Below, piece after piece: positions 3,324 to 41,052 of a stretch of 64,000 nucleotides of DNA. The translations under genes and the position numbers were made by a program. This DNA comes from Escherichia coli (lineage in GTDB: Bacteria; Pseudomonadota; Gammaproteobacteria; Enterobacterales; Enterobacteriaceae). The stretch lies in NCBI RefSeq assembly GCF_003018255.1, contig NZ_CP027440.1. One strand, 5' to 3'. The notes under the pieces were generated by a model, which made no database searches, was not told the DNA's origin, and saw only the letters and a program-made list of their open reading frames with translations. Within the stretch, counting starts at the first letter, position 1; every line of letters begins with the position of its first letter.

Positions 3324-5009
3324 TTATCCTAATCCTGGCCATACCATGACGATGATTGTCCCTGCCAGCGTCAGCAGGACGTTGGCGATTGCGTAAGTGC
3401 CCGCATAGCCCAGTGCCGGGATATTACTGCGAGCTGTATCACTGATGATCTCCATTGCCGGCGCGCAGGTGCGTGCGCCCATCATTGCGCCGAACAACAG
3501 TGCGCGGTTCATTCGCAATACATAAGCACCGAACAAGAAGCAGATAACCACTGGCACCAGACTGACAATCAATCCGGCAATCAACATCTGACCGCCAATC
3601 GCGCCCAGGCCGTTATTAATACCGCTACCAGCGCTCAGACCAACGCCTGCCATAAACACCATCAAGCCGAACTCCTTCACCATGCTTAATGCACCCTGCG
3701 GAATGTAACCGAAGGTCGGGTGGTTAGCACGCATAAAGCCCAGCATAATTCCGGCGAATAACAACCCGGCAGCGTTCCCCATACCGAAACTGAATGTGCT
3801 GAACTGGAAGGTGATCATCCCGATCATCAGCCCAATAACAAAGAAGGCGCAGAATGCCAGCAAGTCAGTGACCTGGCTGTGAATCGAGATAAAGCCGATG
3901 CGATCGGCGATGGTTTTTACCCGGCGGGCATCGCCGCTGACTTGTAAAACGTCACCTTTGTTAAGCACGACGTTGTCATCAATCGGCATCTCAATCTGGC
4001 TACGTATGACGCGGTTAAGGAAGCAACCGTGATCGGTCAACTTCAGTTGTGCCAGGCGTTTGCCAACAGCGTTATGGTTTTTAACGACCACTTCTTCAGT
4101 GACGATACGCATGTCGAGAAGGTCACGATCGAAAACTTCTTTGCCATTACGGAAACTGGGATCGAGTCGGGCGTGGGCGTCAGGATAGCCTACCAACGCT
4201 ATTTCATCGCCCATTTGTAGTACGGCATCACCGTCTGGATTTGCCAGAATCCCGTTACGCCGAATACGTTCAATGTAACAGCCAGTTTGTCGATAAATAC
4301 CCAGTTCACGCAGATTTTTGCCGTCGGTCCAGGCTACCAGCTCCGGGCCGACGCGGTAGGCGCGGATCACCGGCAAATAAACCTTACGGTTGGCATCTGT
4401 GTCCAGGCCACGTTCGCGGGCGATTTGCTGGGCGCTGGTCTGTAAGTCCTGATGCTGCAATTTCGGCAAGTAACGCGCACCAACAATCAAACTCACCAGG
4501 CCGATTAAATAGGTTAAGGCATACCCGAGGCTCAGATTATCCAGTGCCAATGAGAGCTGCCTGCTTTCCATGCCGGAATGACGCAGTGTATCGCCAGCAC
4601 CGACCAGAACCGGTGTTGACGTCATAGAGCCTGCTAACATACCGGCCGTCAGGCCAATATCCCAGCCAAACAGCTTACCTAACCCTAAGGCGATGACCAG
4701 CGCACTGCCAACCATCACCAGTGCTAACATTAGGTAATTTTTCCCATCGCGAAAAAAAATGGAAAAAAAGTTCGGTCCGGCTTCGACCCCGACGCAGAAA
4801 ATAAACAGCATAAAGCCAAGATTAAGCGCGTCGGTGTTAATGCTGAAATGTTGTTGGCCTAATAACAGCGATACGACTAAAACGCCAATGGAATTACCCA
4901 GTTGGATCGAACCAAGTCGTAATTTCCCGAGACATAGCCCAAGCGCGAGGACCACAAATAATAACAGAATGTAATTCCCATTTAACAATTCGGCGACGTT
5001 TATATTCAC
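3324..5009 (-). CDS. ybjL: Putative AAE-family transporter YbjL with two central TrkA-C/RCK_C-like domains (561 aa)
   Basis: ORF 3324..5009 (561 aa); hydrophobic N- and C-terminal halves flanking a soluble central region. Confidence 0.85.
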
Positions 5010-17960: not shown

Positions 17961-18689
17961 TTAGTGAGAGAGATAGTTTTTAAATGCTTCGGTTTGCGGC
18001 TCGGTAAAGCAGCTCGCGTCGCCTTGTTCTACGATATGACCGTTTTCCATATACACCACTCGGCTGGCGGTTTTACGCGCCACTTCAACTTCGTGGGTGA
18101 CGATCACCTGGGTAATATTCGTTTCTGCCAGCTCACGAATGATGCTGACGATTTGTGCCGTAATTTCGGGGTCCAGTGCGGCGGTCGGTTCATCGAACAG
18201 CAGTACCTGCGGTTCCATCATCAACGCACGGGCAATAGCAACACGCTGCTGCTGACCTCCAGAAAGATGCAGCGGGTAACGATCGCTATAAGGTTTGAGA
18301 CGCAGACGTTCCAGCAGTTTTTCTGCACGGGCCAGCGCCTGATCTTTACTCAACCCCAGTACACGACAGGGCGCTTCAATCAGGTTTTGCTGCACGGTCA
18401 GATGCGGCCACAGGTTGTATTGCTGAAACACCATGCCAACGTTACGACGCAAATCGCGAATCGCTTTGTCAGAGGGGGTTTTGGTGAAATCGAAATGGTT
18501 GCCTGCAATGTTGAGCGTACCGGAGCGCGGCATCTCAAGCAGATTGAGTACACGCAGCAGCGAGCTTTTACCCGCGCCGCTGGGGCCAAGTAACACCAGC
18601 GTTTCGCCCTGTGGGCAATCCAGCGTGATATCGAACAGCGCCTGATGCGCGCCGTAGAAGCAATTAATGCCGTTTAATTGAATACTCAT
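17961..18689 (-). CDS. artP: Arginine ABC transporter ATPase ArtP (242 aa)
   Basis: ORF 17961..18788 trimmed to [13 protein letters not shown]; Walker [10 protein letters not shown], signature LSGGQQQR. Confidence 0.9.
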
Positions 18690-18906
18690 TGACACTCGTA
18701 TACTGGCAGTCTGATAGCTATTGAGGTCGAAGATAGTACCTTTGACAGAATAATTATGCAATATTTCTGCTTTAAAAGTTAAAAGCAAAGCGCATTATTC
18801 AATAAACATAGCACAAAATAACGGGGGCGGTGGTCGGCGAGCATAAATGTCGGCATTCCTCACGAAATGCCGTACAATTTACGGGGTTTATTGGTTGATC
18901 AAGACG

Positions 18907-19422
18907 TTAGCGATTCTCGATGGACTGACGGAGCGTACCCGCTGTGGCATGAACGCTACCGCCTAAGTAGCGCACATCGTCGATGACCCAACACTGGCCT
19001 TCCTGAATCATTAACACTTCATCCTGCCAGCCCTGGTCACCCTGCTTGAGATCCACGCGCAATGGAATGTTACGGGCATCACGATTAGGGATAGTCGATG
19101 CACTGGCAACGTGGGCGCTGTCTGGCAAGGTGGTTCGACTGGAGAACGGATCGCTGCTTAACAATTCACGATGACTATTATCGCGGCTGGCATCGCTAAG
19201 TAGGGTTGCCAGTTTGTCACTCAAATAGGGGCGCAGAGCGGTAATGTCATTGCCGCGATGTTGAATGCGGTAGTCATAGAACTGTTGAGCCACGCTATCA
19301 GGCCCCCCCTGGACACAGGAACCGGTGCGGGGGCCGTTATCTTTATAAGCTGGCGTGACGGTGGTACAGGCACTGAGTAGCAGTGCGCAAGGGATAAGCA
19401 TGGTCAATTTGCTATAGCGCAT
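18907..19422 (-). CDS. ybjP: Lipoprotein YbjP (171 aa)
   Basis: ORF 18907..19446 trimmed to MRYSKLTMLIPCALLLSAC (lipobox LSAC). Confidence 0.85.
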   Translation of the reverse strand: MRYSKLTMLIPCALLLSACTTVTPAYKDNGPRTGSCVQGGPDSVAQQFYDYRIQHRGNDITALRPYLSDKLATLLSDASRDNSHRELLSSDPFSSRTTLPDSAHVASASTIPNRDARNIPLRVDLKQGDQGWQDEVLMIQEGQCWVIDDVRYLGGSVHATAGTLRQSIENR

Positions 19423-19547
19423 GATGATTTCCTTATAAGCGAACACCTTGAAAGCGTTCTACGATAATAATGATATCCTTTCAATAATAGCGTATCAGTC
19501 CGATAATGCTTTGAAGATCGAAGGCTTAGCAAACAAGGAGATCGATC

Positions 19548-19871
19548 ATGCAATTTTCTACAACCCCAACTCTGGAAGGCCAGACCATCGTCGAATATTG
19601 CGGTGTGGTGACCGGCGAAGCGATTTTAGGTGCCAATATTTTCCGTGATTTCTTTGCCGGTATCCGCGATATCGTTGGCGGACGCTCCGGGGCTTATGAA
19701 AAAGAATTGCGTAAAGCGCGGGAGATCGCCTTTGAGGAGCTCGGCGATCAGGCCCGGGCGCTGGGGGCTGATGCCGTAGTCGGTATTGATATCGACTACG
19801 AAACGGTCGGGCAAAATGGCAGTATGCTGATGGTTAGCGTCAGCGGTACGGCGGTGAAAACGCGTCGATGA
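19548..19871 (+). CDS. ybjQ: YbjQ (UPF0145 family, 107 aa)
   Basis: ORF 19548..19871. Confidence 0.8.
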
Positions 19872-20698
19872 GAAGAGTCTTTTGGCTGGTCGCTGTCGCT
19901 CTGTTACTGGCAGGGTGTGCAGGCGAAAAAGGCATTGTCGAGAAAGAGGGATATCAGCTTGATACCCGACGCCAGGCGCAGGCGGCGTATCCGCGCATTA
20001 AAGTGCTGGTTATCCACTACACCGCAGATGATTTTGATAGCTCGCTGGCGACACTGACCGATAAGCAGGTCAGCTCGCATTATCTGGTCCCTGCGGTACC
20101 ACCGCGATACAACGGTAAACCGCGCATCTGGCAACTGGTGCCGGAACAGGAACTGGCCTGGCATGCGGGGATTAGCGCCTGGCGCGGGGCAACGCGTCTT
20201 AACGACACCTCTATTGGCATTGAGCTGGAAAACCGTGGCTGGCAAAAATCATCCGGAGTGAAATATTTTGCCCCGTTTGAACAGGCACAGATTCAGGCGC
20301 TTATTCCGCTGGCGAAAGATATTATTGCCCGTTATCACATCAAGCCGGAAAACGTAGTGGCGCATGCGGATATTGCGCCGCAGCGCAAAGACGATCCGGG
20401 GCTGTTATTCCCCTGGCAACAACTGGCGCAGCAGGGGATTGGTGCCTGGCCGGATGCGCAGCGGGTGAACTTTTACCTTGCCGGGCGCGCGCCGCACACA
20501 CTGGTAGATACCGCATCATTACTGGAGCTTTTGGCGCGCTACGGTTATGACGTTAAACCTGATATGACACCGCGCGAGCAGCGGCGCGTGATTATGGCGT
20601 TCCAGATGCATTTCCGCCCGACGTTATACAACGGCGAAGCGGATGCAGAAACTCAGGCGATTGCCGAAGCGTTGCTGGAGAAATACGGGCAGGATTAG
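19868..20698 (+). CDS. amiD: N-acetylmuramoyl-L-alanine amidase AmiD (lipoprotein, amidase_2 family), 276 aa
   Basis: ORF 19868..20698; lipobox LLAGCAG; overlaps ybjQ stop. Confidence 0.85.
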
Positions 20699-21708
20699 CG
20701 CGGCAGTTTTCCGTGGTCGCGTAGCCAGGCGGCAGTTTTCTCGATACCTTCATCCAGGGTGATGACCGGCTGATAACCTAACTCTTCCTGCGCGCGCGTA
20801 ATATCCAGCGTAAAGTCAAAATTCAACTTGGAGACGCCGTAGTGGGTCAGCGGCGGCTCTTTTGCTGACTTGCGGCCTAAACGCTCCATGCTGCGGGCGA
20901 TCATATCCAGCATCGGGTAGGGGACGGAACGAATACGACAGTCAATATTCAACTCGTCGATCAGCTTCTGCACGATGCTGCGCAGTGTGCGATGCTCGCC
21001 GTTGGTGATGTTGTACACACGCCCGGAAGGTAGCTTATCGCAGGCTTCCTGGCTTGCCAGCCACATGGCGTGCACGGCATTTTCATAGTAGGTCATATCG
21101 ACCAGCGCACTGCCGCCATGCGGTAACAGAATGCTGCCGTAGTGGTGCATCATATGCGCCAGACGGGGAATAAAGACTTTATCGTGCGGTCCGAACAGAC
21201 TTTGTGGGCGCAGAATAGTAAAGCGCGTTTGTGGATTCGCCTGCGAAAGCATATTGATCACCTCTTCGCTGGCTGCTTTGCTACGGGCAAACTCGTTGGC
21301 GAAGCGGTGAGGGCGAAAATCTTCTTTAATATCGCGATGGTGGTGATAATCGAAGTACAGGGAGGGTGAAGAGATATGAATAAAGTTACGCACACCCCAG
21401 GCGACAGCCCATTCACCCAGGCGGCGAGTGGCGCGAACGTTAGCCAGATCGAAAGCCTGTTGTGTCCCCCAGGGCGAGGTAAAGCTGGAGCAGTGCCACA
21501 GCGTATCAATGCCCGCGAGCATCACTTTAGCTTGTGATGAGACCAGCTCGGTCAGATCCGCCGGAACAAACTCTGCGCCCATTTTTTCCAGCAATTTACC
21601 CATTGCCTCGTTGCGACCGGTCGCTCGCACGCTGATGCCTTTCTGGCATAAAAACTCTACCGCGTTTCGACCTAAGCCGCTGGTGGCGCCGGTAACCAGT
21701 ACCTTCAT
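20695..21708 (-). CDS. ybjS: NAD(P)-dependent epimerase/dehydratase-family protein YbjS (337 aa)
   Basis: ORF 20695..21771 trimmed to [13 protein letters not shown] Rossmann start. Confidence 0.85.
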
Positions 21709-21806
21709 ATCAATCCACTGTTGTTGAGAAAATAACGTGCGCATTCTTCCGTGATTTCCCCCATGATGCAATGGGAAACATGAAAGAATAACGCAGGTTT
21801 TGTCGA

Positions 21807-23237
21807 TTAATCTGTGCTTTGTTCTGCCAGTCTGGCGATTCGTTTTGCCATTCCGCGAAAAATAAACAGATGCGCGGGGATCATCAATAACCAGTAAAAC
21901 AGCCCCGGCATACCGTGCGGATGCCAGAATGCGCGAACATCGATAGTACGATAGTCACCTTTATCTTCCAGGGTAAAACACAGTCGTCCCAGCCCCGGCG
22001 CTTTCATGCCAAATAACAGCGTAAGTTGTTTTTCCGGTTCAACGACAATCACTTTCCAGCTATCCACCGCATCGCCGGTCTGCAAATATTCACGCTCCGG
22101 GCGGCCTTTCGCCAGCTTATGACCGATCGCGCGGTCCATCAACGCCCGTGTCTGCCACAAAATATTGCCAAAGAAATAACGCTCTTTACCGCCGATTTGA
22201 TTCACCACCTGCCATAAAGCCGCAAGGCTGGCGGACGCTTTAACGGTAAACCCCGCCTGTTTGGCGAAATAACCGTACTCCGGTCGCCAGCGGGCAAAGG
22301 CCTGAGCGTCGTAGCCCCAGTCGCTGGAGTTGACCAGCTTTTCTTCTTCTTTCAGGGTGCGACGTACCGCGTCATCGAAAGCGATCAGCCGTTGTGGGAT
22401 GAGTGCACGTAGCGCGGTGTCATCCGCCAGCAGATCATGTTTCAGCCCCTGAATCAACGCCCTGGCGGTGGTGGGCGGTACGGAAGTAATCACATTGAGA
22501 AACCACACCGAAATCCAGCGGGTGGGGAGGGGGATGGGGATCAACCAGCGGCGCTTACCGCTCACCGCCATAAAATGTTCAAACTGTTGCTGATAACTGA
22601 GCACTTCTGGTCCGGCGGCTTCGAAGATGCGATGTTCGCTGGCCGGATGATCTAACAGCGCCACCAGATAGTGCAGCAAGTTTTCCAGCGCGATGGGCGT
22701 GGTGCGTGAACGAACCCAGCGTGGCGGCGTTAACACCGGCAGGTTGTAGACCATATCGCGCATGACTTCGAACGCCGCTGAACCTGCACCAACGATTATT
22801 CCGGCACGTAGTTCGGTCACCGGGACACCCGCTTCACGAAGAATATCCGCCGTAGCCTGACGGGCGCGCAGATGGTCAGACTGCTCATGTGCCGGGGCCT
22901 GCAACGAACTGAGGAAGATTAATTGCTTAACAGGGACTTCGCGTAGCGCATCGCGGACGTTGAGAGCCACCTGGCGCTCCTGAGCGATAAAATCGCCGCC
23001 TTCGCCCATGCTGTGCACCAGAAAATAGACCGTATCGATATCCTGCAACAGGGCCGGAAGGTTATCCGGCCAGCTGAGATCGACTTTATGGCAACTGACG
23101 TTTGCCAGTTGCAGCTTTGCAAGCCTGTCGACATGACGTGCCGCCGCCAGGATCTGATGCCCTTGCTGGCTGAGAGTTCGCACCAGATGCTGACCAATGT
23201 AGCCACTGGCACCGAGAACTAAAATGCGTTGCGGCAC
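21807..23237 (-). CDS. ybjT: NAD(P)-binding protein YbjT (476 aa), GTG start
   Basis: ORF 21807..23312 trimmed to [15 protein letters not shown] Rossmann motif start. Confidence 0.8.
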
Positions 23238-23247
23238 GTCTCTCTCC

Positions 23248-24249
23248 TTAACGCGCCAGGAACGCACGCCAGTGGGCGGCAACTTCCGCCAGTTGTTCAC
23301 GCGAGACGTCAAGATGGGTCACCAGGCGGACAATCGGCGAGGCGTTAATCAGCACGTTTCTCGCTTTCATGTATTCGCCTAACGCGGCAGCATTTTCTTC
23401 CCCGACGCGAACAAACAGCATATTGGTGTCCTGACGCATCACATCCGCGCCTGCTTCACGCAACTGCTCCGCCATCCAGGCGGCGTTATCGTGGTCTTCC
23501 TGCAAACGTGCGACGTTATTTTTCAGGGCATACATCCCGGCGGCAGCCAGAATGCCGGACTGACGCATCCCGCCACCTGTCATTTTCCGCCAGCGAATGG
23601 CACGTTTAATGTAATCACGATTACCGACGAGTAATGAACCGACCGGCGTCCCAAGACCTTTCGACAGGCAAATGGTGAACGAATCACAATATTGCGTGAT
23701 CTCTTTCAGTTCGCAGCCGTAAGCCACCACGGCATTAAAGATGCGCGCACCGTCAACATGCAGCGCCAGATTGCGCTCGCGAGTAAATTCCCATGCTTCT
23801 TTCAGGTATTCCCGCGGCAACACTTTGCCGTTGTGGGTGTTTTCCAGACTGAGTAATTTGGTGCGGGCGAAATGGATATCGTCGGGTTTGATCTTCATCG
23901 CCACTTTATCCAGAGGTAGCGTGCCGTCGGCAGCCGCGTCGATGGGTTGCGGCTGAATACTGCCCAGCACTGCTGCGCCACCGGCTTCAAACAGATAGTT
24001 ATGCGCGGCCTGACCGACGATATACTCTTCGCCGCGTTCGCAGTGACTGAGCAGAGCGACCAGGTTGGCCTGAGTGCCGGTAGGCAGAAAAATGGCGGCT
24101 TCTTTACCGGAAAGCTCTGCTGCATAGTCCTGCAGAGCATTAACGGTAGGGTCGTCTCCGTAAACGTCGTCCCCAACCGGGGCGGCCATCATCGCTTCGA
24201 GCATGGCGCGGCTCGGTCGGGTAACGGTATCACTGCGTAAATCAATCAT
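23248..24249 (-). CDS. ltaE: Low-specificity L-threonine aldolase LtaE (333 aa)
   Basis: ORF 23248..24249; PLP-enzyme translation. Confidence 0.9.
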
Positions 24250-24285
24250 GGCATGTCCTTATTATGACGGGAAATGCCACCCTTT

Positions 24286-26004
24286 TTACCTTAGCCAGTT
24301 CGTTTTCGCCAGCTCGATCACTTCATCGCCGCGTCCGCTGATAATTGCGCGCAGCATATACAGGCTGAAACCTTTGGCCTGTTCGAGTTTGATCTGCGGT
24401 GGAATGGCTAACTCTTCTTTGGCGACCACCACATCCACCAACACCGGACCGTCGATGGAGAAGGCGCGTTGCAGGGCTTCATCGACTTCAGAGGCTTTTT
24501 CTACACGAATACCCGTAATGCCGCACGCTTCGGCAATGCGGGCAAAGTTGGTGTCGTGCAGCTCAGTACCGTCTGTCAGGTAGCCTCCGGCTTTCATCTC
24601 CATCGCCACAAAGCCCAGCACGCTGTTATTAAAGACGATAATTTTCACCGGCAGTTTCATCTGCACTACTGAGAGGAAATCGCCCATCAACATGCTAAAA
24701 CCGCCATCGCCGCACATGGCGACCACCTGACGTTCCGGCTCGGTTGCCTGCGCACCCAGCGCCTGCGGCATGGCGTTAGCCATCGAACCGTGGTTAAACG
24801 AACCTAACAGGCGACGCTTGCCGTTCATTTTTAGATAACGTGCCGCCCACACCGTTGGCGTACCAACGTCACAGGTGAAAATAGCGTCATCGGCGGCAAA
24901 ATGACTAATTTGCTGCGCCAGATATTGCGGGTGAATGGCTTTCTCGCTCGGTTTAGCTAAATCGTCCAGCCCTTTGCGGGCGTCGCGGTAATCTTCCAGC
25001 GCTTTATCCAGAAACTTGCGATCGGCTTTTTCTTCCACCAATGGCAGCAATGCACGCAGAGTCGACTTGATATCGCCGACCAGTGCCATATCAACCTTGC
25101 TGTGAGCGCCGATGCTGGCTGGGTTGATATCAATCTGAATGATTTTGGCATCGGTCGGGTAGAAGGCGCGGTAGGGAAATTGCGTGCCGAGTAGCACTAA
25201 CGTGTCGGCGTTCATCATGGTATGGAAACCTGACGAAAAGCCGATTAACCCGGTCATTCCAACATCATACGGATTATCGTATTCGACATGTTCTTTACCG
25301 CGCAGGGCATGAACTATAGGCGCTTTAATTTTCCCGGCAAACTCAACTAACTCTTTATGCGCCCCCGCGCAGCCGCTGCCACACATCAGGGCGATATTGC
25401 TGGAATAACGCAGCAGTTGCGCCAGTTTGCGTAACTCTTCTTCTTCCGGCGTCACGACTGGTTGTGGCGCATGATACCAGTGCGTGGTTGCCCCTTCTGG
25501 CGCAGGTTTTAACGCCACGTCGCCCGGTAACACGACAACGGAAACGCCACGGTTTAGCACCGCTTTGCGCATGGCAATCGCCAGCACTTGTGGGATTTGC
25601 TCCGGGCTGGAAACCAGCTCGCAATAGTGACTACATTCGCGGAATAACTCTTGTGGGTGGGTTTCCTGGAAATAGCCGCTGCCAATTTCGCTGGAGGGAA
25701 TATGAGCGGCAATCGCCAGTACCGGAACGTGATTGCGGTGGCAATCGAACAGGCCGTTGATTAAGTGCAGGTTGCCGGGGCCGCACGATCCGGCACAGAC
25801 CGCCAGTTCTCCGCTAAGTTGTGCTTCAGCGCCAGCGGCAAACGCCGCCACTTCTTCATGCCGGGTGGACATCCACTCGATGGTGCCCATGCGATTAAGA
25901 CTGTCACTAAGACCGTTCAGAGAGTCGCCCGTGACTCCCCAGATGCGTTTCACGCCTGCCGATTCGAGTGTTTTGGCGATATAAGCTGCAACCGTTTGTT
26001 TCAT
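24286..26004 (-). CDS. poxB: Pyruvate oxidase (ubiquinone) PoxB, TPP/FAD enzyme (572 aa)
   Basis: ORF 24286..26004; TPP-binding GDGGF motif. Confidence 0.9.
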
Positions 26005-26136
26005 GGTTCTCCATCTCCTGAATGTGATAACGGTTACAAGTTTAGTTCATCTGACGGAGGGGGAAGGGATGGGAGAAAAAGGAGGCACTAACGGTTAAAT
26101 AGCCCGATGAAAGGAATATCATCGGGCATCAGGCGA

Positions 26137-27105
26137 TTATGCGAGAACCAAATCCCCCTGCGGATGGCAGGAGCAGGCCAGTACGTAACCTTCAGCGATT
26201 TCGGCGTCGGTCAGCGTCATTGTGCTGCTCACCGTATATTCACCGGAAACCACTTTCGTCTTACAGCAGCCGCAAACACCTGCGCGGCAGGCGGCGACAA
26301 CCGGAACGTTATTGCTTTCCAGCGCCTCCAGTAGCGTGGTGCCAACCGGGGCGTAAAATTCTCGTGCCGGTTGCAGTTTGGTGAATTTCAGACCGCTGGT
26401 CGCCGCTTCCGCTACTGGGGTGAAGAATTTCTCTTTAAAGAAACGCGTCACGCCGAGCGCTTTCACTTCCTGCTCTACCCAATCCATATATGGAGCAGGG
26501 CCACAGGTCATCACGGTACGTGAGGCTAAATCAGGGACACCTGCCAGCAGTTCGCGAGTGAGACGACCAGCGATAAAGCCTTCGGTAACGTTATTTTCCG
26601 CCACCAGCGTTACCGGATAGTTACGCCACTCATCGGCGAAAATCACATCCTGCGGCGTACGCACGTTGTAGATCACCTGCACATCGGCCTGTGGACGGTT
26701 CTTCGCCAGCCAGCGACGCATCGACATAATCGGCGTAACGCCGCAGCCTGCCGCCAGCAACAGGAATTTATCTTCTGCTTTATCATCGCAGGTAAATTCC
26801 CCCATCGCGTCCGAAAGCCAGAGATAATCACCGCGTTTTACATCGCGCGTCAGCCACCGGGAGCCGACACCGTCATCAATCCGCCGCACAGTCAGGGTGA
26901 TGTATTCACTCACGCCTGGCGTGGAGGAAATGGTGTAAGCACGCAGCGTTTCCGCTGAGTTACGCACGCTGACCAGTGCATATTGCCCGGCGCGATATGG
27001 GTAGTAATCGTGGCAAATCAGGGAAATCGTCCACACATCCGGCGTTTCTTGCGTAATGTGATGAACCTGCATCCGCCACGGGCATTGATTCGTTGGCATC
27101 GTCAT
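26137..27105 (-). CDS. hcr: NADH oxidoreductase Hcr (FNR-like flavin domain + C-terminal 2Fe-2S), 322 aa
   Basis: ORF 26137..27111 trimmed to MTMPTNQ; C-terminal CRAGVCGCC cluster. Confidence 0.9.
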   Translation of the reverse strand: MTMPTNQCPWRMQVHHITQETPDVWTISLICHDYYPYRAGQYALVSVRNSAETLRAYTISSTPGVSEYITLTVRRIDDGVGSRWLTRDVKRGDYLWLSDAMGEFTCDDKAEDKFLLLAAGCGVTPIMSMRRWLAKNRPQADVQVIYNVRTPQDVIFADEWRNYPVTLVAENNVTEGFIAGRLTRELLAGVPDLASRTVMTCGPAPYMDWVEQEVKALGVTRFFKEKFFTPVAEAATSGLKFTKLQPAREFYAPVGTTLLEALESNNVPVVAACRAGVCGCCKTKVVSGEYTVSSTMTLTDAEIAEGYVLACSCHPQGDLVLA

Positions 27106-27116
27106 CGACAAACTCC

Positions 27117-28769
27117 TTACGCGCTCAACAGTTGCTTCATGTCTTCTTCAACAGTGGTGATAGAACGCAGGCCGAATTTCTCGTTCAGCACCGCCAGCAG
27201 GTCTGGTGTCAGGAAACCAGGTGCAGTCGGGCCGGTGACGATATTTTTCACACCCAGAGAAAGCAGCGTCAGCAGAATGACAATCGCTTTCTGTTCAAAC
27301 CAGGAGAGCACCAGCGACAGCGGCAGATCGTTGACTCCGCAGCCCAGTTTCTCTGCCAGCGTTACCGCCAGAATAATTGCTGAGTAAGCATCGTTACACT
27401 GACCAGCATCTACCAGACGCGGCAGACCTTCGATATCGCCAAACTCAAGTTTATTAAAGCGATATTTACCGCAAGCGAGGGTCAGGATCAGGCAGTCATC
27501 CGGCACGCTGGTGGCGAAATCGGTGAAGTAGTGACGCTCGCCGCGTGCGCCGTCACAGCCGCCAAGCAGGAAGATATGACGCAGTTTTTCACGGCTCACC
27601 AGATCAATCAGCGTATCGGCTGCGCCAAGCAGTGTCTGGCGACCAAAGCCCACGGTGATCAGGTGCGGAATTTCGCTGTACGGGAAGCCCGCCATCTGTT
27701 GCGCCTGGGCGATGACCGCAGAGAAATCTTCGCCATCCAGATGACGCACACCCGGCCAGCCAACGATGCTGCGGGTCCAGATACGATCGTCATAAGCGCC
27801 TACGGTTGGGTCGATGATGCAGTTCGAGGTCATCACGATGGGGCCAGGGAAACGAGCGAACTCCACTTGCTGATTCTGCCAGCCGCTGCCGTAGTTACCG
27901 ACCAGATGCTTGAATTTACGCAGCTCCGGGTAGCCATGCGCAGGCAGCATTTCACCGTGGGTGTAGACATTAACGCCCGTGCCTTCGGTCTGTTCCAGCA
28001 GGTTGTAGAGATCTTTGAGATCGTGACCGGAAATCAGAATGCATTTACCTGCCGTCGCTTTGACGTTGACCTGGGTTGGGGTCGGGTGACCGTATTTACT
28101 GGTTTCGCCTGCATCCAGAATGCTCATCACTTTGAAGTTCATCTGGCCGATTTCCATTGAACACTCAAGAAGCGCGTTCATATCGGCAGGCCAGGTCCCC
28201 AGCCACGCCATGATTTTATGGTACTGGGCATAAATATCGTTGTCGTATTGACCGAGAACATGCGCGTGTTCCATATAGGCCGCCGCACCTTTCAGGCCAT
28301 ACAGGCACAGTAGACGCAGGCCGAGAATGTTTTCGCCAATCGCCGCTTTATCTTTGTTAGGGGTAAATTCTGCTGCCTGACGTTGCAGCTCGCCGAGATC
28401 GTCGCTCACCAGTTGCAGGTCAGCCATCGGGTTATCGACGCGGGCGTTGGCATCTACAGCCAGGCATTGTGCTTTCAGCGCCTCGCGCAGGGCAATCGCT
28501 TCACGAGCGTAGCCGACAATACGCGGAGAATCGAAGTTAACGTTGGTCAGGGTTGAGAAAAAGGCACGTGGCGCAAAGCTGTCTACATCGTGGTTGATGA
28601 TGCCGTATTCACGTGCTTTCACTGCCCAGGCCGAAAGCCCTTGCAGCGCCGCGATGAGTAAATCCTGAAGGTCAGAGGTTTCCGCCGTTTTACCACACAT
28701 CCCCTGCGCGTATGAGCAGCCGTTTCCTGCCGGAGTACGGATAGTTTGTTCACATTGCACACAAAACAT
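27117..28769 (-). CDS. hcp: Hybrid-cluster protein Hcp (hydroxylamine reductase), 550 aa
   Basis: ORF 27117..28775 trimmed to MFCVQCEQT; N-terminal Cys cluster. Confidence 0.9.
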
Positions 28770-28912
28770 GATCACACCTTTTAAAGTTATATTTAATATA
28801 CATGTTTAAGGTTAAGACGCTTAACGCGGGGATAAAAGAGATTTTTAATGCAACTTTAAGGGAGATTGATTTAGCGCAATTTTGGCGGCAGAGATCTACC
28901 GCCAGAGAGGTA

Positions 28913-29812
28913 TTATGCAGAGAAAAAGGCGATGAGAATCGGCACTAACAGACTAAGAATAAAACCGTGAACAATCGCCGCCGGGACCATATCCAGCCCG
29001 CCTGTACGTTGAAGAACGGGCAGGGTGAAATCCATCGACGTCGCACCGCATAAGCCCAGTGCAGTAGAGCGGCTACGGCGAATCAGCCCAGGGATTAACA
29101 TAATAGCAATCAGCTCACGGGCCAGATCATTAAAAAACGCCGCGCTCCCGATTACCGGACCAAAAGATTCGGTCAATAAAATACCGGAAAGAGAATACCA
29201 GCCGAAACCGGAGGCCATTGCCAGCGCGGTATTGATGGGAAGATCAAGAATAAAGGCGTTAATTAAACCACCAATTAATGAACTGGCAACCACCACCACG
29301 GCGACAATCATTCCCCGGCGATTAAGGACAATCTGCTTTAAGGTCATGCCATTATTGCGCAACTGAATACCGACGAGGAAAAGTAGCAGAATTAAGGTGT
29401 ATTCACTGGCTTCGGTCGCGTGTTGTAAGAAAGCCAGTCCACTCAGACCAATGGCAAAACCAATCACTACTACGCCGCACAGTTTTAGCGACTCCAGCGC
29501 CATCGCAATACGCGACGGGAGTTTTTCTTGATGATGGTGGTTGCGCCATGGCAGGCCGCGCTCCAGCCACATCAGGGCGGCAATATTACACAGTAAAATA
29601 ACGGTAATACTGACGGCAGAATAATGCAGAATTGCCAACAAGTTACTGGCGAGGTTATCGAGAAACGCCAGACTGATACCCATAAAAAAGAGAATAAGGT
29701 AAACCATCCAACTTAATAGCTGATTAATAACTCTTAATGCAGCTTTTTGGCGAAGCGGAATGAGGTAACCCACAATCAGGGGAACCAGAATGATTAACAG
29801 CCCAGAAAACAT
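28913..29812 (-). CDS. lysO: L-lysine exporter LysO (YbjE), 299 aa
   Basis: ORF 28913..29857 trimmed to MFSGLLIILV; multi-span membrane protein. Confidence 0.8.
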   Translation of the reverse strand: MFSGLLIILVPLIVGYLIPLRQKAALRVINQLLSWMVYLILFFMGISLAFLDNLASNLLAILHYSAVSITVILLCNIAALMWLERGLPWRNHHHQEKLPSRIAMALESLKLCGVVVIGFAIGLSGLAFLQHATEASEYTLILLLFLVGIQLRNNGMTLKQIVLNRRGMIVAVVVVASSLIGGLINAFILDLPINTALAMASGFGWYSLSGILLTESFGPVIGSAAFFNDLARELIAIMLIPGLIRRSRSTALGLCGATSMDFTLPVLQRTGGLDMVPAAIVHGFILSLLVPILIAFFSA

Positions 29813-29993
29813 GAAAAACCAGTCCTTGCAAAGAAGATTCGAAATGCGCGATGACACACTACTGAAAGCGGAAGGACGAGTAAAGTTGCAATTAAAAGGA
29901 AATGTTATGCATCAGAGGGGGATTTTTAATTCTATATGAGTGTTTAGCATTGTTGCGCTCCTTTCATGTGCAATGCCATATAAAGCCACTGGC

Positions 29994-30040
29994 GCAGGGA
30001 GCGGCCAGTTGCCGCCGCTCCCTGCCCCCCCGGCCTTCGG
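29994..30040 (-). terminator. GC-rich hairpin pair (12-bp stem GCAGGGAGCGGC/GCCGCTCCCTGC, then CCCCG-N5-CGGGG) about 100 nt downstream of aqpZ; possible terminator or structured spacer element
   Basis: Inverted repeats read directly; no strong U-run follows on minus strand, so intrinsic-terminator assignment is tentative. Confidence 0.35.
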
Positions 30041-30132
30041 GGAACGCCTCGGCGATTTTAACGCCACCAACACCCGTGCGGTTTGTAACGTCGAAGATAA
30101 AACCACCAGGGCAGACAACATGCCAATGCTAA

Positions 30133-30828
30133 TTAATCGCGTTTTTCCAGTAGAGTCCGGTAAATCAGACCACCGATAATACCGCCGACAATTGGCACCA
30201 CCCAGAAGAACCACAGTTGTTCTAATGCCCAGCCGCCCTGGAAGATAGCAACCGCAGTACTGCGCGCCGGGTTAACGGAAGTGTTAGTCACCGGAATACT
30301 GATTAAGTGAATCAGGGTTAAGGCCAGACCAATGGCAATTGGCGCAAAACCAGCAGGAGCGAATTTGTCAGTTGCGCCGTGGATCACCAACAGGAAACCT
30401 GCACTCAATACCAGTTCAACTACCAGCGCGGAAAGCATGGAATAACCGCCTGGTGAATGCTCGCCATAACCGTTAGAAGCAAAACCGCTGGCTGCCGCGT
30501 CAAAACCCGTTTTACCACTGGCAATTAAATACAGCAGCGCCGCCGCAACAATACCGCCGACAACCTGGGCAATTACGTAGCCAACGACTTCTTTTGCCGG
30601 GAAACGTCCGCCAGCCCATAAACCAATAGTGACCGCCGGGTTAAAATGACCACCAGAAATATGACCAACAGCAAAGGCCATTGTCAGAACGGTCAGACCG
30701 AACGCCAACGCCACGCCGGCAAAACCAATGCCTAATTCCGGGAAGCCTGCGGCCAGTACGGCACTACCACAGCCGCCAAAAACAAGCCAGAAAGTACCAA
30801 AACATTCAGCTGCTAATTTTCTGAACAT
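30133..30828 (-). CDS. aqpZ: Aquaporin Z (231 aa)
   Basis: ORF 30133..30834 trimmed to [11 protein letters not shown]; two NPA motifs ([14 protein letters not shown]). Confidence 0.9.
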
Positions 30829-31253
30829 ATCCACCTCAATTAAAAATTGACCCTGTGAAAAATATGGTCGTTTTATAGGGTCGTCGTAAAAAAGTGACGA
30901 CGGAAATAATGCGCGGCTATTTTAAAAACGAAGGCAAGTCATTCACCAGATAAATAAATCCAGTAAATTTGATTTAAGGCAACAGCGGGTTGCCCCATAT
31001 AGTCATTTGTCTGATTGACAGTGTAGTGCAAGCGAAAGATTTAATCCTTTAGGCGTAATAAAAAATAATTTATCATGCTAATTATTTGATTTTGTTGTTT
31101 TTGCAGACTTATCAGCAAGAGGGAGTATAACGCGATTATTCGCTCATTTTTCAGACATTTGCCATGCTTAAATGTGATGTCATCACGTATTAGCATGGCC
31201 TTTCCCGTTATACTGCCAGCGTAAAGGATAAGTCACATATTTCTGGAGGGGAT

Positions 31254-32912
31254 ATGATTCTTGAGCGCGTTGAAATTGTGGGTTTTCGCGGTATCAACCG
31301 TTTGTCGTTGATGCTGGAACAAAACAACGTCCTGATTGGGGAGAACGCGTGGGGTAAATCCAGCTTGCTGGACGCCTTAACCCTGCTGCTATCGCCAGAA
31401 TCAGATCTCTACCATTTTGAGCGCGACGATTTCTGGTTCCCGCCGGGAGATATCAACGGGCGAGAACATCATCTGCATATTATTTTGACCTTCCGCGAAT
31501 CGCTGCCAGGCCGACATCGGGTTCGCCGCTATCGGCCGCTGGAAGCGTGCTGGACGCCATGCACCGATGGTTATCACCGTATTTTTTATCGTCTGGAAGG
31601 GGAGAGTGCGGAAGACGGCAGCGTGATGACACTGCGCAGTTTTCTCGATAAAGACGGACATCCGATTGATGTTGAGGATATTAACGATCAGGCTCGTCAT
31701 CTGGTGCGTTTAATGCCGGTGCTGCGCTTGCGTGATGCCCGTTTTATGCGCCGTATTCGTAACGGCACGGTGCCAAATGTCCCCAATGTGGAAGTCACCG
31801 CGCGCCAGCTCGATTTCCTCGCCCGTGAATTATCCTCACATCCGCAAAATCTCTCTGATGGGCAGATTCGTCAGGGACTTTCCGCAATGGTGCAACTTCT
31901 TGAGCATTATTTTTCTGAGCAGGGAGCTGGACAGGCGCGATATCGTTTAATGCGGCGGCGAGCCAGCAATGAGCAACGAAGCTGGCGCTATCTGGATATC
32001 ATCAACCGGATGATTGACCGACCTGGAGGGCGCTCGTATCGGGTTATTTTGCTCGGCCTGTTTGCTACTTTATTGCAGGCAAAAGGCACATTGCGACTGG
32101 ATAAAGACGCCCGTCCATTGTTGCTGATCGAAGATCCAGAAACCCGTTTACACCCCATTATGCTTTCAGTTGCCTGGCATCTGTTGAATCTTCTGCCCTT
32201 GCAGCGCATTGCCACCACCAACTCGGGTGAGTTACTTTCGTTAACGCCGGTAGAGCATGTTTGCCGACTGGTACGTGAGTCCTCGCGCGTTGCCGCCTGG
32301 CGTCTGGGGCCGAGTGGCTTGAGTACCGAAGATAGCCGACGCATATCCTTTCACATTCGTTTTAACCGTCCGTCATCGCTGTTTGCTCGCTGCTGGCTGC
32401 TGGTGGAAGGGGAAACGGAAACCTGGGTTATCAATGAACTGGCGCGTCAGTGCGGACATCATTTTGATGCCGAAGGAATCAAGGTCATTGAGTTTGCCCA
32501 GTCCGGGCTAAAGCCACTGGTTAAATTTGCCCGCCGAATGGGGATTGAATGGCATGTACTGGTCGATGGCGATGAAGCAGGGAAGAAATATGCCGCTACG
32601 GTACGCAGCCTGTTGAATAACGATCGGGAAGCCGAACGAGAACATTTAACGGCGTTACCGGCGCTGGATATGGAACATTTTATGTATCGCCAGGGATTTT
32701 CCGATGTGTTCCACCGCGTGGCGCAAATCCCGGAAAATATACCGATGAATCTGCGCAAAGTTATCTCGAAAGCGATCCATCGCTCTTCCAAACCCGATCT
32801 TGCCATTGAAGTGGCAATGGAGGCCGGACGTCGTGGTGTGGACTCCGTACCGACGCTGCTGAAAAAAATGTTCTCACGCGTGCTGTGGCTGGCGCGCGGT
32901 CGCGCGGATTAA
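31254..32912 (+). CDS. ybjD: OLD-family ATP-dependent endonuclease-like protein YbjD (N-terminal ABC-type ATPase, C-terminal TOPRIM), 552 aa
   Basis: ORF 31254..32912; Walker A GENAWGKSS at residues ~29-37; C-terminal acidic TOPRIM-like motifs LLVEGETE and VLVDGDEAGK. Confidence 0.85.
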   Translation: MILERVEIVGFRGINRLSLMLEQNNVLIGENAWGKSSLLDALTLLLSPESDLYHFERDDFWFPPGDINGREHHLHIILTFRESLPGRHRVRRYRPLEACWTPCTDGYHRIFYRLEGESAEDGSVMTLRSFLDKDGHPIDVEDINDQARHLVRLMPVLRLRDARFMRRIRNGTVPNVPNVEVTARQLDFLARELSSHPQNLSDGQIRQGLSAMVQLLEHYFSEQGAGQARYRLMRRRASNEQRSWRYLDIINRMIDRPGGRSYRVILLGLFATLLQAKGTLRLDKDARPLLLIEDPETRLHPIMLSVAWHLLNLLPLQRIATTNSGELLSLTPVEHVCRLVRESSRVAAWRLGPSGLSTEDSRRISFHIRFNRPSSLFARCWLLVEGETETWVINELARQCGHHFDAEGIKVIEFAQSGLKPLVKFARRMGIEWHVLVDGDEAGKKYAATVRSLLNNDREAEREHLTALPALDMEHFMYRQGFSDVFHRVAQIPENIPMNLRKVISKAIHRSSKPDLAIEVAMEAGRRGVDSVPTLLKKMFSRVLWLARGRAD

Positions 32913-33901
32913 CCGCGAAACATCGTGGCCATTTGTGGCTGAATAGCGTCGAGCATCTCATAGCGCCGACGGTATTCAGCCCGTTTTTTACTGGCGATTT
33001 CGGCAATCTCTTTTCGTGCTATCTGTGCCGGAAGGCGGTAATGGCGTTCAGCATCACATACGCCGCCAACCGACTCCCAGAACGCGTTGTAATCGGCATG
33101 GATCTTGCCTTCTTTATCACGATAACGCAGGCTGCGGTAAATATGCGTTTCATTGCTGACGGCAATAATCTGCTCTACCTGCAAACGTTGGGCAAACAGA
33201 CAGGCCGCTTCCATCACAAGGCGTTTGGGAAATAGCCCGTGGCAGGCTTTCGTCGCATTCTGGATTTCCTGATGTGGAATTTCCCATTTTGCGCCTTGCA
33301 GTCCGCCAATAAACATTGTTCTTTTCCCCTTATATTCACACAGGGTAAACGTGATCTCTGCCAGAGGAATACCTTCGCTGTTGCGGAACAGGATTGTGCT
33401 GTCACCTTCTTTATCCATTGAGATCATCATGGTCAGCTCAAGCGTGAACTGCTCGCCGTTTTTGCCTTCCAGTTTAGCCAGTTGCAGCCCGGGGGTATTC
33501 AAATATAAGCTGAATTCTTCCGCCGACATACACCCGCGGAGTAACGCATAATGGTAACGTAACGCCTCCAGCAATTGCTTACGGCTAAGATTCGCCGCAA
33601 GGTAAGGGCGATGCAGACGCACAGGCAGTCGCGGCTGGCGCGTTAACAACACATTGAGATTGGGCCAGTGGGAAAGTTCGTTCATCCACTCAACGCTTAA
33701 ACGCGGCATAATCAACGAGCGCAGCAAAAATTTCTGGCGAAAACTACGGCGATGCCAGAATTTACCCGGCCGACACTGTCCACGTGCCAGGCTAAGAAAA
33801 AGTGACAGGCTGCTGAGAGATTCAGATGGCGTAAAGGTCCGTTCAGTTAGCTGCGACATATTCATGAAATCAATGGTTATACATGTCGTCGATTTCACCA
33901 T
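32909..33901 (-). CDS. ybjX: YbjX (DUF535, VirK-like), 330 aa
   Basis: ORF 32909..33901; 4-nt convergent overlap with ybjD stop. Confidence 0.8.
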   Translation of the reverse strand: MVKSTTCITIDFMNMSQLTERTFTPSESLSSLSLFLSLARGQCRPGKFWHRRSFRQKFLLRSLIMPRLSVEWMNELSHWPNLNVLLTRQPRLPVRLHRPYLAANLSRKQLLEALRYHYALLRGCMSAEEFSLYLNTPGLQLAKLEGKNGEQFTLELTMMISMDKEGDSTILFRNSEGIPLAEITFTLCEYKGKRTMFIGGLQGAKWEIPHQEIQNATKACHGLFPKRLVMEAACLFAQRLQVEQIIAVSNETHIYRSLRYRDKEGKIHADYNAFWESVGGVCDAERHYRLPAQIARKEIAEIASKKRAEYRRRYEMLDAIQPQMATMFRG

Positions 33902-40321: not shown

Positions 40322-40560
40322 TCTAATTGTTAGGTAGGTTGGTGAAGTCCGTAATCTCGAAAGAGGTTACGGACTTTTTGTTTATGGGGTGGAGGAGGTT
40401 CTGACCCTTTTTTTGATGATGATGGTAATTTGTTGATAATTAGTGCTGCGGGAAGGTAAGGATAAAAAAGGGTGGTAGCAGGAAAATGAGATGGTTTTGC
40501 TTTATTAACAACGGGCTAGACGTGTAGTATTTGAGTTCACTGCCGTACAGGCAGATAAAA

Positions 40561-40964
40561 TGCGAAAAAAAGCTCGTACTTTCGTACGAGCTCTTCTTTG
40601 AATATGGCGGTGAGGGGGGGATTGACTCGCTTCGCTCGCCCTGCGGGCAGCCCACTCACTGTGTTCGTGGTCTGTCCAACTGGCTGCGCCAGTTGTCGAA
40701 CCCCGGTCGGGGCTTCTCATCCCCCCTGGAGTGCAATATGCGAAAAAAAAGCTCGCACTTTCGTACGAGCTCTTCTTTGAATATGGCGGTGAGGGGGGGG
40801 ATTGACTCGCTTCGCTCGCCCTGCGGGCAGCCCACTCACTGTGTTCGTGGTCTGTCCAACTGGCTGCGCCAGTTGTCGAACCCCGGTCGGGGCTTCTCAT
40901 CCCCCCTGGAGTGCAATATGCGAAAAAAAAAGCTCGCACTTTCGTACGAGCTCTTCTTTGAATA
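40561..40964. repeat. Tandem array (~2.25 copies, period 178-180 bp) adjoining serW; each unit contains the 3'-terminal ~19 nt of tRNA-Ser plus the serW terminator hairpin and a ~115-bp GC-rich structured segment
   Basis: Unit starts at 40561, 40739 and 40919 (TGCGAAAAAAAGCTCG..., near-identical copies); TGGCGGTGAGGGGGGGATT (reverse complement of tRNA 3' end) recurs at ~40605, ~40785 and 40965. Confidence 0.85.
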
Positions 40965-41052
40965 TGGCGGTGAGGGGGGGATTCGAACCCCCGATACGTT
41001 GCCGTATACACACTTTCCAGGCGTGCTCCTTCAGCCACTCGGACACCTCACC
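40965..41052 (-). tRNA. serW: tRNA-Ser (anticodon GGA), 88 nt, encoded CCA end
   Basis: Minus strand reads GGTGAGGTGTCCGAGTGGCTGAAGGAGCACGCCTGGAAAGTGTGTATACGGCAACGTATCGGGGGTTCGAATCCCCCCCTCACCGCCA; long variable arm typical of tRNA-Ser; followed by hairpin + T9 terminator. Confidence 0.9.

Follow-up and report, generated by a model that had tools for sequence, protein, structure and literature searches.

Convergent four-nucleotide overlap of the amiD and ybjS stop codons in Escherichia coli

The amiD/ybjS junction

The window analyzed here, a stretch of 64,000 nucleotides from an Escherichia coli chromosome (NCBI RefSeq assembly GCF_003018255.1, contig NZ_CP027440.1), is 99.9% identical to strain JNE23-011 over 2.5 kb and has matches in 5424 of 5426 complete genomes. 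Within it, amiD and ybjS run toward one another and share the tetramer TTAG (Table 1). Positions 1-3 of TTAG form the ybjS stop codon TAA on the minus strand, and positions 2-4 form the amiD stop codon TAG on the plus strand. The plus strand at 20690-20699 is CAGGATTAGC, which in the amiD frame reads ...CAG GAT TAG C.... The gene names, coordinates and strands given in the initial annotation, together with the 4-nt tail-to-tail overlap itself, are borne out by the sequence, the open reading frame (ORF) list and RefSeq. The same 4-nt overlap is found in the RefSeq annotation of the 99.9% identical genome JNE23-011 and in that of MG1655 (amiD 904913-905743, ybjS 905740-906753). Compared with MG1655, the window shows no difference across the 44 nt aligned at the junction, and 98.2% identity without gaps across the two-gene span.

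Table 1. Features of the amiD/ybjS locus and of the ybjD/ybjX junction. Positions are those of the 64,000-nt window.
Feature	Position	Strand	Evidence
ybjQ, upstream co-directional gene	19548..19871	+	ORF list, annotation
amiD CDS, N-acetylmuramoyl-L-alanine amidase AmiD, 276 aa	19868..20698	+	ORF list, RefSeq, Pfam Amidase_2, PDB 2bh7_A
amiD stop TAG	20696-20698	+	sequence
ybjS CDS, NAD-dependent epimerase/dehydratase family, 337 aa from RefSeq ATG	20695..21708	-	ORF list, RefSeq, Pfam Epimerase/3Beta_HSD
ybjS stop TAA	complement of 20697-20695	-	sequence
Tetramer TTAG common to amiD and ybjS	20695..20698	both	sequence
Putative untranslated 3' extension of the ybjQ-amiD transcript, antisense to ybjS	20699..21073	+	Adams et al., 2021
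Putative untranslated 3' extension of the ybjS transcript, antisense to amiD	20044..20694	-	Adams et al., 2021
Tetramer TTAA common to ybjD (+, 31254-32912) and ybjX (-, ends 32909)	32909..32912	both	ORF list, RefSeq

The last amiD codon (GAT) has its third base at 20695, and the last ybjS codon (CGC) has its third base at 20698. GAT and GAC both encode Asp in amiD, while CGC and CGT both encode Arg in ybjS. Because the outer bases of the tetramer are third codon positions, a switch between TAA and TAG in either stop is synonymous for the partner gene. A change in the central TA, on the other hand, would abolish both stops. The amiD/ybjS overlap is therefore both costless and sticky.

Both genes end where their proteins end. 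AmiD carries an Amidase_2 domain, and PDB chain 2bh7_A matches AmiD residues 18-276; YbjS carries an Epimerase/3Beta_HSD domain. The C-termini lie at the same positions across genera, with YbjS ending in ...GKL[P/H]R* and AmiD in ...EKYG[Q/R][D/G]*, and in over 50 species identity is retained as far as the stop (85-99% for YbjS and 69-96% for AmiD). Both C-termini are the authentic ends of conserved proteins. It has been noted in general that some long prokaryotic overlaps are mispredictions (PMC2478687), and one of the two stop assignments could on that ground be wrong, so that the genes would not truly overlap. Stop codons, however, are not a matter of prediction, and such an artefact, to which we give practically no credence, is refuted by frames conserved to the stop in more than 50 species, by an AmiD structure that continues through residue 276, and by the agreement of RefSeq and MG1655. 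The overlap is confirmed.

At the other end of ybjS, the longest minus-strand ORF reaches 21771, where a TTG start lies 21 codons (21709-21771) upstream of the ATG annotated in RefSeq; in other genera, it is from this ATG (MKVLVTG...) that the conserved protein aligns. The start of amiD overlaps the stop of ybjQ in the sequence ATGA (19868-19871), a common 4-nt co-directional overlap. ybjQ and amiD probably form one transcription unit, and the ATGA stop/start overlap suggests translational coupling within it. An exact 12-nt direct repeat, GCGGCAGTTTTC, is present at 20700-20711 and 20729-20740, 29 nt apart in the last ybjS codons. The reading frame differs between the copies, Citrobacter does not conserve them, and the repeat is probably due to chance.

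Four-nucleotide overlaps among convergent genes

Tail-to-tail overlaps are restricted by the stop codons themselves. By brute-force enumeration, overlaps of 1, 2, 3, and 5 nt are impossible, and a 4-nt overlap can only take the form CTAA, CTAG, TTAA, or TTAG, the last of which is the tetramer found here. Among 58 species, 1890 convergent overlaps have been counted, 1218 of which are at least 5 nt long (Lillo and Krakauer, 2007; PMC2174442). Since shorter lengths are impossible, the remaining 672 (36%) are exactly 4 nt long, which is the most frequent length of convergent overlaps in prokaryotes (Lillo and Krakauer, 2007). The same survey cites a model of Fukuda et al. (2003) based on stop-codon mutation. 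For E. coli, it lists 58 convergent overlaps in the 2007 annotation, and a rho-independent terminator is predicted for only 23 of the 116 genes involved (PMC2174442).

The TTAG tetramer is therefore no statistical surprise; the non-random part of the arrangement is the conservation of the junction. Approximately nine convergent junctions are present in the window. Two of them have a spacing of -4, and the genes of the rest are separated by 28-343 nt. That two 4-nt overlaps in one window might be a regional peculiarity was considered, and was judged an unremarkable coincidence given 58 convergent overlaps genome-wide.

Search for a terminator or RNA structure

The initial annotation had placed no terminator between amiD and ybjS, and this holds in every search applied. 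No inverted repeat was detected in 20550-20850 by an inverted-repeat search. Four predicted folds covering both strands were no better than those of shuffled sequences (z = +1.7, +0.2, 0.0, and +0.6), and a terminator scan returned only weak 5-bp stems, 7 in number vs. 5.0 ± 2.1 in shuffles, which is no excess over chance. The G+C-rich hairpin and U-tract that follow the stop at an intrinsic terminator are not seen at amiD/ybjS. An Rfam scan of 18500-23500 found no family; its only hit was a sub-threshold match to an archaeal snoRNA (30.1 bits vs. a gathering score of 64), which was treated as chance. An intrinsic terminator or a hidden RNA structure at the junction is thus ruled out by the scan, the folds and the inverted-repeat search.

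Conservation of the junction

Within the species, an 80-nt segment centered on the junction is present in 5421 of 5426 complete E. coli genomes, and in all matches listed it is gapless with both genes annotated beneath. A scan with YbjS, using one genome per species, returned 80 Enterobacteriaceae loci, and amiD is the convergent neighbor in 56 of these. The amiD-ybjS spacing is -4 in 24 of the 56 loci: all five Escherichia, both Salmonella enterica subspecies, four Klebsiella species, two others, and 11 of the Citrobacter clade (one of which is labeled Raoultella). A further 16 loci (Kluyvera, Raoultella, Lelliottia, and others) have a spacing of 0 to +7, while 11 have 18-113 nt and 5 have 410-967 nt between the stops. 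All four permitted tetramers occur at the orthologous -4 site; read in the ybjS orientation, these are TTAA (14 loci), CTAA (8), TTAG (1), and CTAG (1).

The coding sequences around the junction show no sign of an additional constraint. Divergence at synonymous (third-position) sites by the junction is 0.43 for ybjS and 0.34-0.37 for amiD, which lies within the range of 0.31-0.50 found along both genes and thus indicates no hidden conserved element. A conserved embedded element at the junction was ruled out on the same ground, as third-position divergence is not lowered there.

Four Citrobacter loci (L007, L008, L011, and L018; locus position ~4012-4130) carry a pair of REP/BIME-like palindromic units of ~100 nt exactly between the ybjS and amiD stops. 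The palindromic units are GCCGGATGGCGGCGCAAGCGCC... and GCCTGATAAGCGAAGCGCCATCAGGC, and a duplication of GCGTTA flanks the insert, giving each gene a separate stop. Sister strains of these Citrobacter retain the -4 overlap. In the remaining 24 of the 80 loci (e.g., L024-L026, L029, L032, L034, L050-L054, L057-L060), amiD, ybjQ, and ybjP are absent within 3 kb downstream of ybjS; these loci are mostly Enterobacter, plus Leclercia, some Citrobacter, and others, and the sequence of one of them (L051) stops 160 nt past ybjS. In Enterobacter cloacae (L058), for instance, 531 nt separate ybjS from its neighbor, an opposite-strand ORF of 613 aa. Because related genera have a REP-like insert, larger inserts, or a non-adjacent amiD, the -4 overlap is dispensable.

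Rho-dependent termination and transcript overlap

Published data place Rho-dependent termination on both strands of the locus. Using DirectRNA-seq, a short-read direct RNA sequencing protocol, on MG1655 with and without bicyclomycin, Adams et al. (2021; PMC7815308, Supplementary file 2) reported a Rho region at MG1655 906118 on the plus strand, antisense to ybjS (score 4.27, p = 4.9e-6), and another at 905089 on the minus strand, antisense to amiD (score 3.90, p = 2.6e-10). Through an ungapped comparison of 1841 nt, the plus-strand region maps to window position 21073, which is 375 nt beyond the amiD stop, and the minus-strand region to 20044, which is 651 nt beyond the ybjS stop. The regions were called in 800-nt windows with low read counts from one condition, and they belong to MG1655 rather than to the strain of the window. 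Antisense Rho regions are common in that dataset, as 51.5% of all Rho regions are antisense to genes (Adams et al., 2021). The initial annotation had set Rho-dependent termination just beyond each stop against its reading of the junction. Rho regions do exist on both strands, but at distances of ~375 and ~651 nt, they account for the transcript ends and leave the overlap standing.

The base composition past the stops is skewed to a mild degree. A mild stretch of C>G lies at ~20739-20818 on the plus strand past the amiD stop, and on the minus strand the 80 nt that follow the ybjS stop have a C/G ratio of 1.42. Over 80-nt windows on either strand in the first 120 nt after the stops, C/G reaches only ~1.4, a mild rut-like signal. 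Going by composition, this may be compatible with Rho loading and is no proof of it. With regard to defined 3' ends, the supplements of Adams et al. (2021) call no Term-seq 3' end near the junction or for amiD/ybjS (MG1655 9054xx-9060xx), and those of TERMITe, a Term-seq analysis paper, contain nothing for amiD/ybjS 3' ends.

RNA-seq coverage of the two genes also overlaps. ExcludonFinder (Sanmartin et al., 2025; PMC12288877) lists amiD-ybjS, ybjD-ybjX, and mdfA-ybjH as convergent excludons; they belong to a set of 165 convergent pairs whose transcripts overlap in at least 50% of the 58 RNA-seq samples from MG1655. As a class, excludon pairs show higher synteny and less single-cell co-expression, and p19 dsRNA validation was not feasible for the convergent ones (PMC12288877).

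Proposed origin of the arrangement

The reading that we consider probable is one of passive compaction, in which Rho ends each transcript inside the partner gene and the complementary 3' tails are a by-product. Two unrelated convergent genes would have lost all spacer DNA between them, reaching the tightest arrangement that the genetic code allows, with their stops interleaved as TTAG. The overlap would have persisted since before the split of Escherichia, Salmonella, and Citrobacter; such long persistence of the -4 state is expected if it is costless and mutationally sticky, as a change in the central TA destroys both stops. Since no intrinsic terminator fits or exists at the junction, each RNA polymerase would continue into the partner gene on the antisense strand. 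The antisense read-through RNA would be untranslated, and Rho would terminate it a few hundred nt on. As a by-product, the amiD and ybjS mRNAs would possess complementary 3' tails.

The overlap, the absence of a hairpin, and the conservation of the junction are direct observations, and the bicyclomycin-sensitive termination regions on both strands and the overlapping RNA-seq coverage have been demonstrated in the literature. The Rho-terminated antisense RNAs probably represent read-through from amiD and ybjS, as opposed to independent antisense starts, and the overlap itself probably has no regulatory purpose. Against this reading, the C>G signal is mild, the Rho regions come from one condition in another strain, and the long conservation of the -4 state could reflect selection instead of mutational stickiness. 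A regulatory consequence is also conceivable, as the pair is among the 165 convergent excludons and the class as a whole shows the synteny and co-expression statistics described above.

Such a consequence would make the locus a functional convergent excludon, in which the complementary 3' tails of the two mRNAs, polymerase traffic across the junction, or both would make amiD and ybjS exclude each other's expression, by transcriptional interference and by RNase III cutting the duplex. An amidase of peptidoglycan recycling would thereby be tied to a putative epimerase that Cpx induces. The entry for amiD-ybjS in the E. coli excludome table of ExcludonFinder fits this reading, as do the reduced single-cell co-expression and higher synteny of the class and the retention of the tight junction across several genera. 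In addition, a study of the CpxR regulon found ybjS to be induced 2.3-fold, so its transcription can vary independently of amiD. With zero spacer, however, overlap of the transcripts is inevitable, and the listing follows from the geometry alone; nor was the p19 assay feasible for convergent pairs. Pair-specific reciprocal regulation of amiD and ybjS was not found in the literature searched, the antisense extension is limited by Rho, and synonymous conservation near the junction is not in excess. Moreover, other lineages tolerate the REP insert, inserts of 400-970 nt, or the loss of adjacency altogether. Taken together, these points make a functional excludon unlikely.

A stronger form, in which the zero-spacer junction is itself held by selection because the antisense 3' tails make amiD and ybjS a reciprocal switch in envelope maintenance, is still less probable. 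The partners of such a switch would be an anhydro-muropeptide amidase (amiD) and a Cpx-responsive putative sugar epimerase (ybjS). If it were true, Rho would set the reach of the interference, and the lineages with REP or larger inserts would have uncoupled the two genes.

Converging polymerases might also stop each other at the boundary. Ju, Li and Liu (2019) and Wang et al. (2022) have described such collision-driven bidirectional termination, which predicts defined 3' ends that depend on neither Rho nor a classical terminator. amiD and ybjS are convergent and have no spacer, and the model has been proposed for hundreds of convergent E. coli pairs (10.1101/2022.10.23.513370). It requires, however, a hairpin-encoding element to fix the site, and is more efficient in highly expressed pairs (10.1101/2022.10.23.513370). 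At the amiD/ybjS junction, the hairpin is absent, no Term-seq 3' ends have been called nearby, and the read-through is Rho-sensitive on both strands, which makes collision a very improbable account.

Relation to known systems

The amiD/ybjS overlap is already known, having been annotated, surveyed, and transcriptomically catalogued. It resembles the 4-nt convergent stop overlaps of Lillo and Krakauer (2007; PMC2174442) in its opposite strands, in its permitted tetramer, and in that most E. coli members of that class have no predicted rho-independent terminator. Nothing essential sets it apart from them; what amiD/ybjS adds is a phylogenetic series at one orthologous junction, with all four tetramers represented and with small-spacer, REP-insert, and disrupted forms in sister genera. 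Like ybjD-ybjX, it is catalogued with the convergent excludons (PMC12288877) because the RNA-seq coverage of the convergent neighbors overlaps. In contrast to classic excludons, for which reciprocal regulation has been demonstrated, the report for amiD-ybjS is one of transcript overlap that is geometrically unavoidable.

A second likeness is to Rho-dependent read-through and antisense termination (Adams et al., 2021; PMC7815308; Peters et al., 2012, as cited there), since the termination is bicyclomycin-sensitive and lies several hundred nt past the translation stops. Compared with typical Rho termination, the rut-like C>G composition at amiD/ybjS is weak. The pair also shares its convergent orientation and its lack of classical unidirectional terminators with the overlapping bidirectional terminators (Ju et al., 2019; Wang et al., 2022; 10.1101/2022.10.23.513370). 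Unlike these, however, amiD/ybjS has neither a hairpin element nor defined 3' ends, and its read-through is Rho-sensitive. The amiD/ybjS pair would serve as a textbook case of the tightest tail-to-tail packing, in which transcription ends via Rho inside the partner gene. Its comparative value is modest: the orthologous spacings of -4, 0 to +7, and ~+100 (REP insert) could be used for testing whether excludon geometry has a regulatory effect.

The ybjD/ybjX pair

The other -4 junction of the window is that of ybjD and ybjX (Table 1), and the initial annotation described the two arrangements as the same. This is correct for the interleaved stop codons and fails beyond them, as ybjD is followed by a terminator-like hairpin inside ybjX. 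The hairpin has 15-nt arms that are 93% complementary and a 15-nt loop (32937-32981, plus strand), and is followed by CGTTTTTT. Together, the hairpin and CGTTTTTT occupy 32937-32989, which is 25-77 nt past the ybjD stop and within the ybjX coding region. The predicted fold has a free energy of -31.5 kcal/mol (z = -3.84), which was matched by 1 of 200 shuffles. By these predictions, the element looks like an intrinsic terminator embedded in the ybjX coding sequence. For ybjD/ybjX, Adams et al. (2021; PMC7815308) reported a Rho region only on the minus strand (917246, score 15.9), with which an embedded terminator for ybjD agrees.

A 5-bp all-GC palindrome, CGCGG-ATTAA-CCGCG (32903-32917), is centered on the TTAA shared by ybjD and ybjX. 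On both strands it is formed in the predicted folds, but the surrounding folds are no better than those of shuffles.

Other observations in the window

A tandem array with a period of 180 nt is present at 40560-40983 (2.4 copies, 97% match). In NZ_AP045067.1, which is otherwise 99.9% identical, the corresponding array consists of six units annotated as RtT sRNA, beside a tRNA-Ser gene. The difference between 2.4 copies in the window and six in NZ_AP045067.1 indicates that the copy number of the array varies between strains. From the amiD/ybjS region to ybjD, the offset between the window and NZ_AP045067.1 shifts by 136 nt, which places an indel somewhere in the ybjT-aqpZ-ybjD stretch (~22000-31000).
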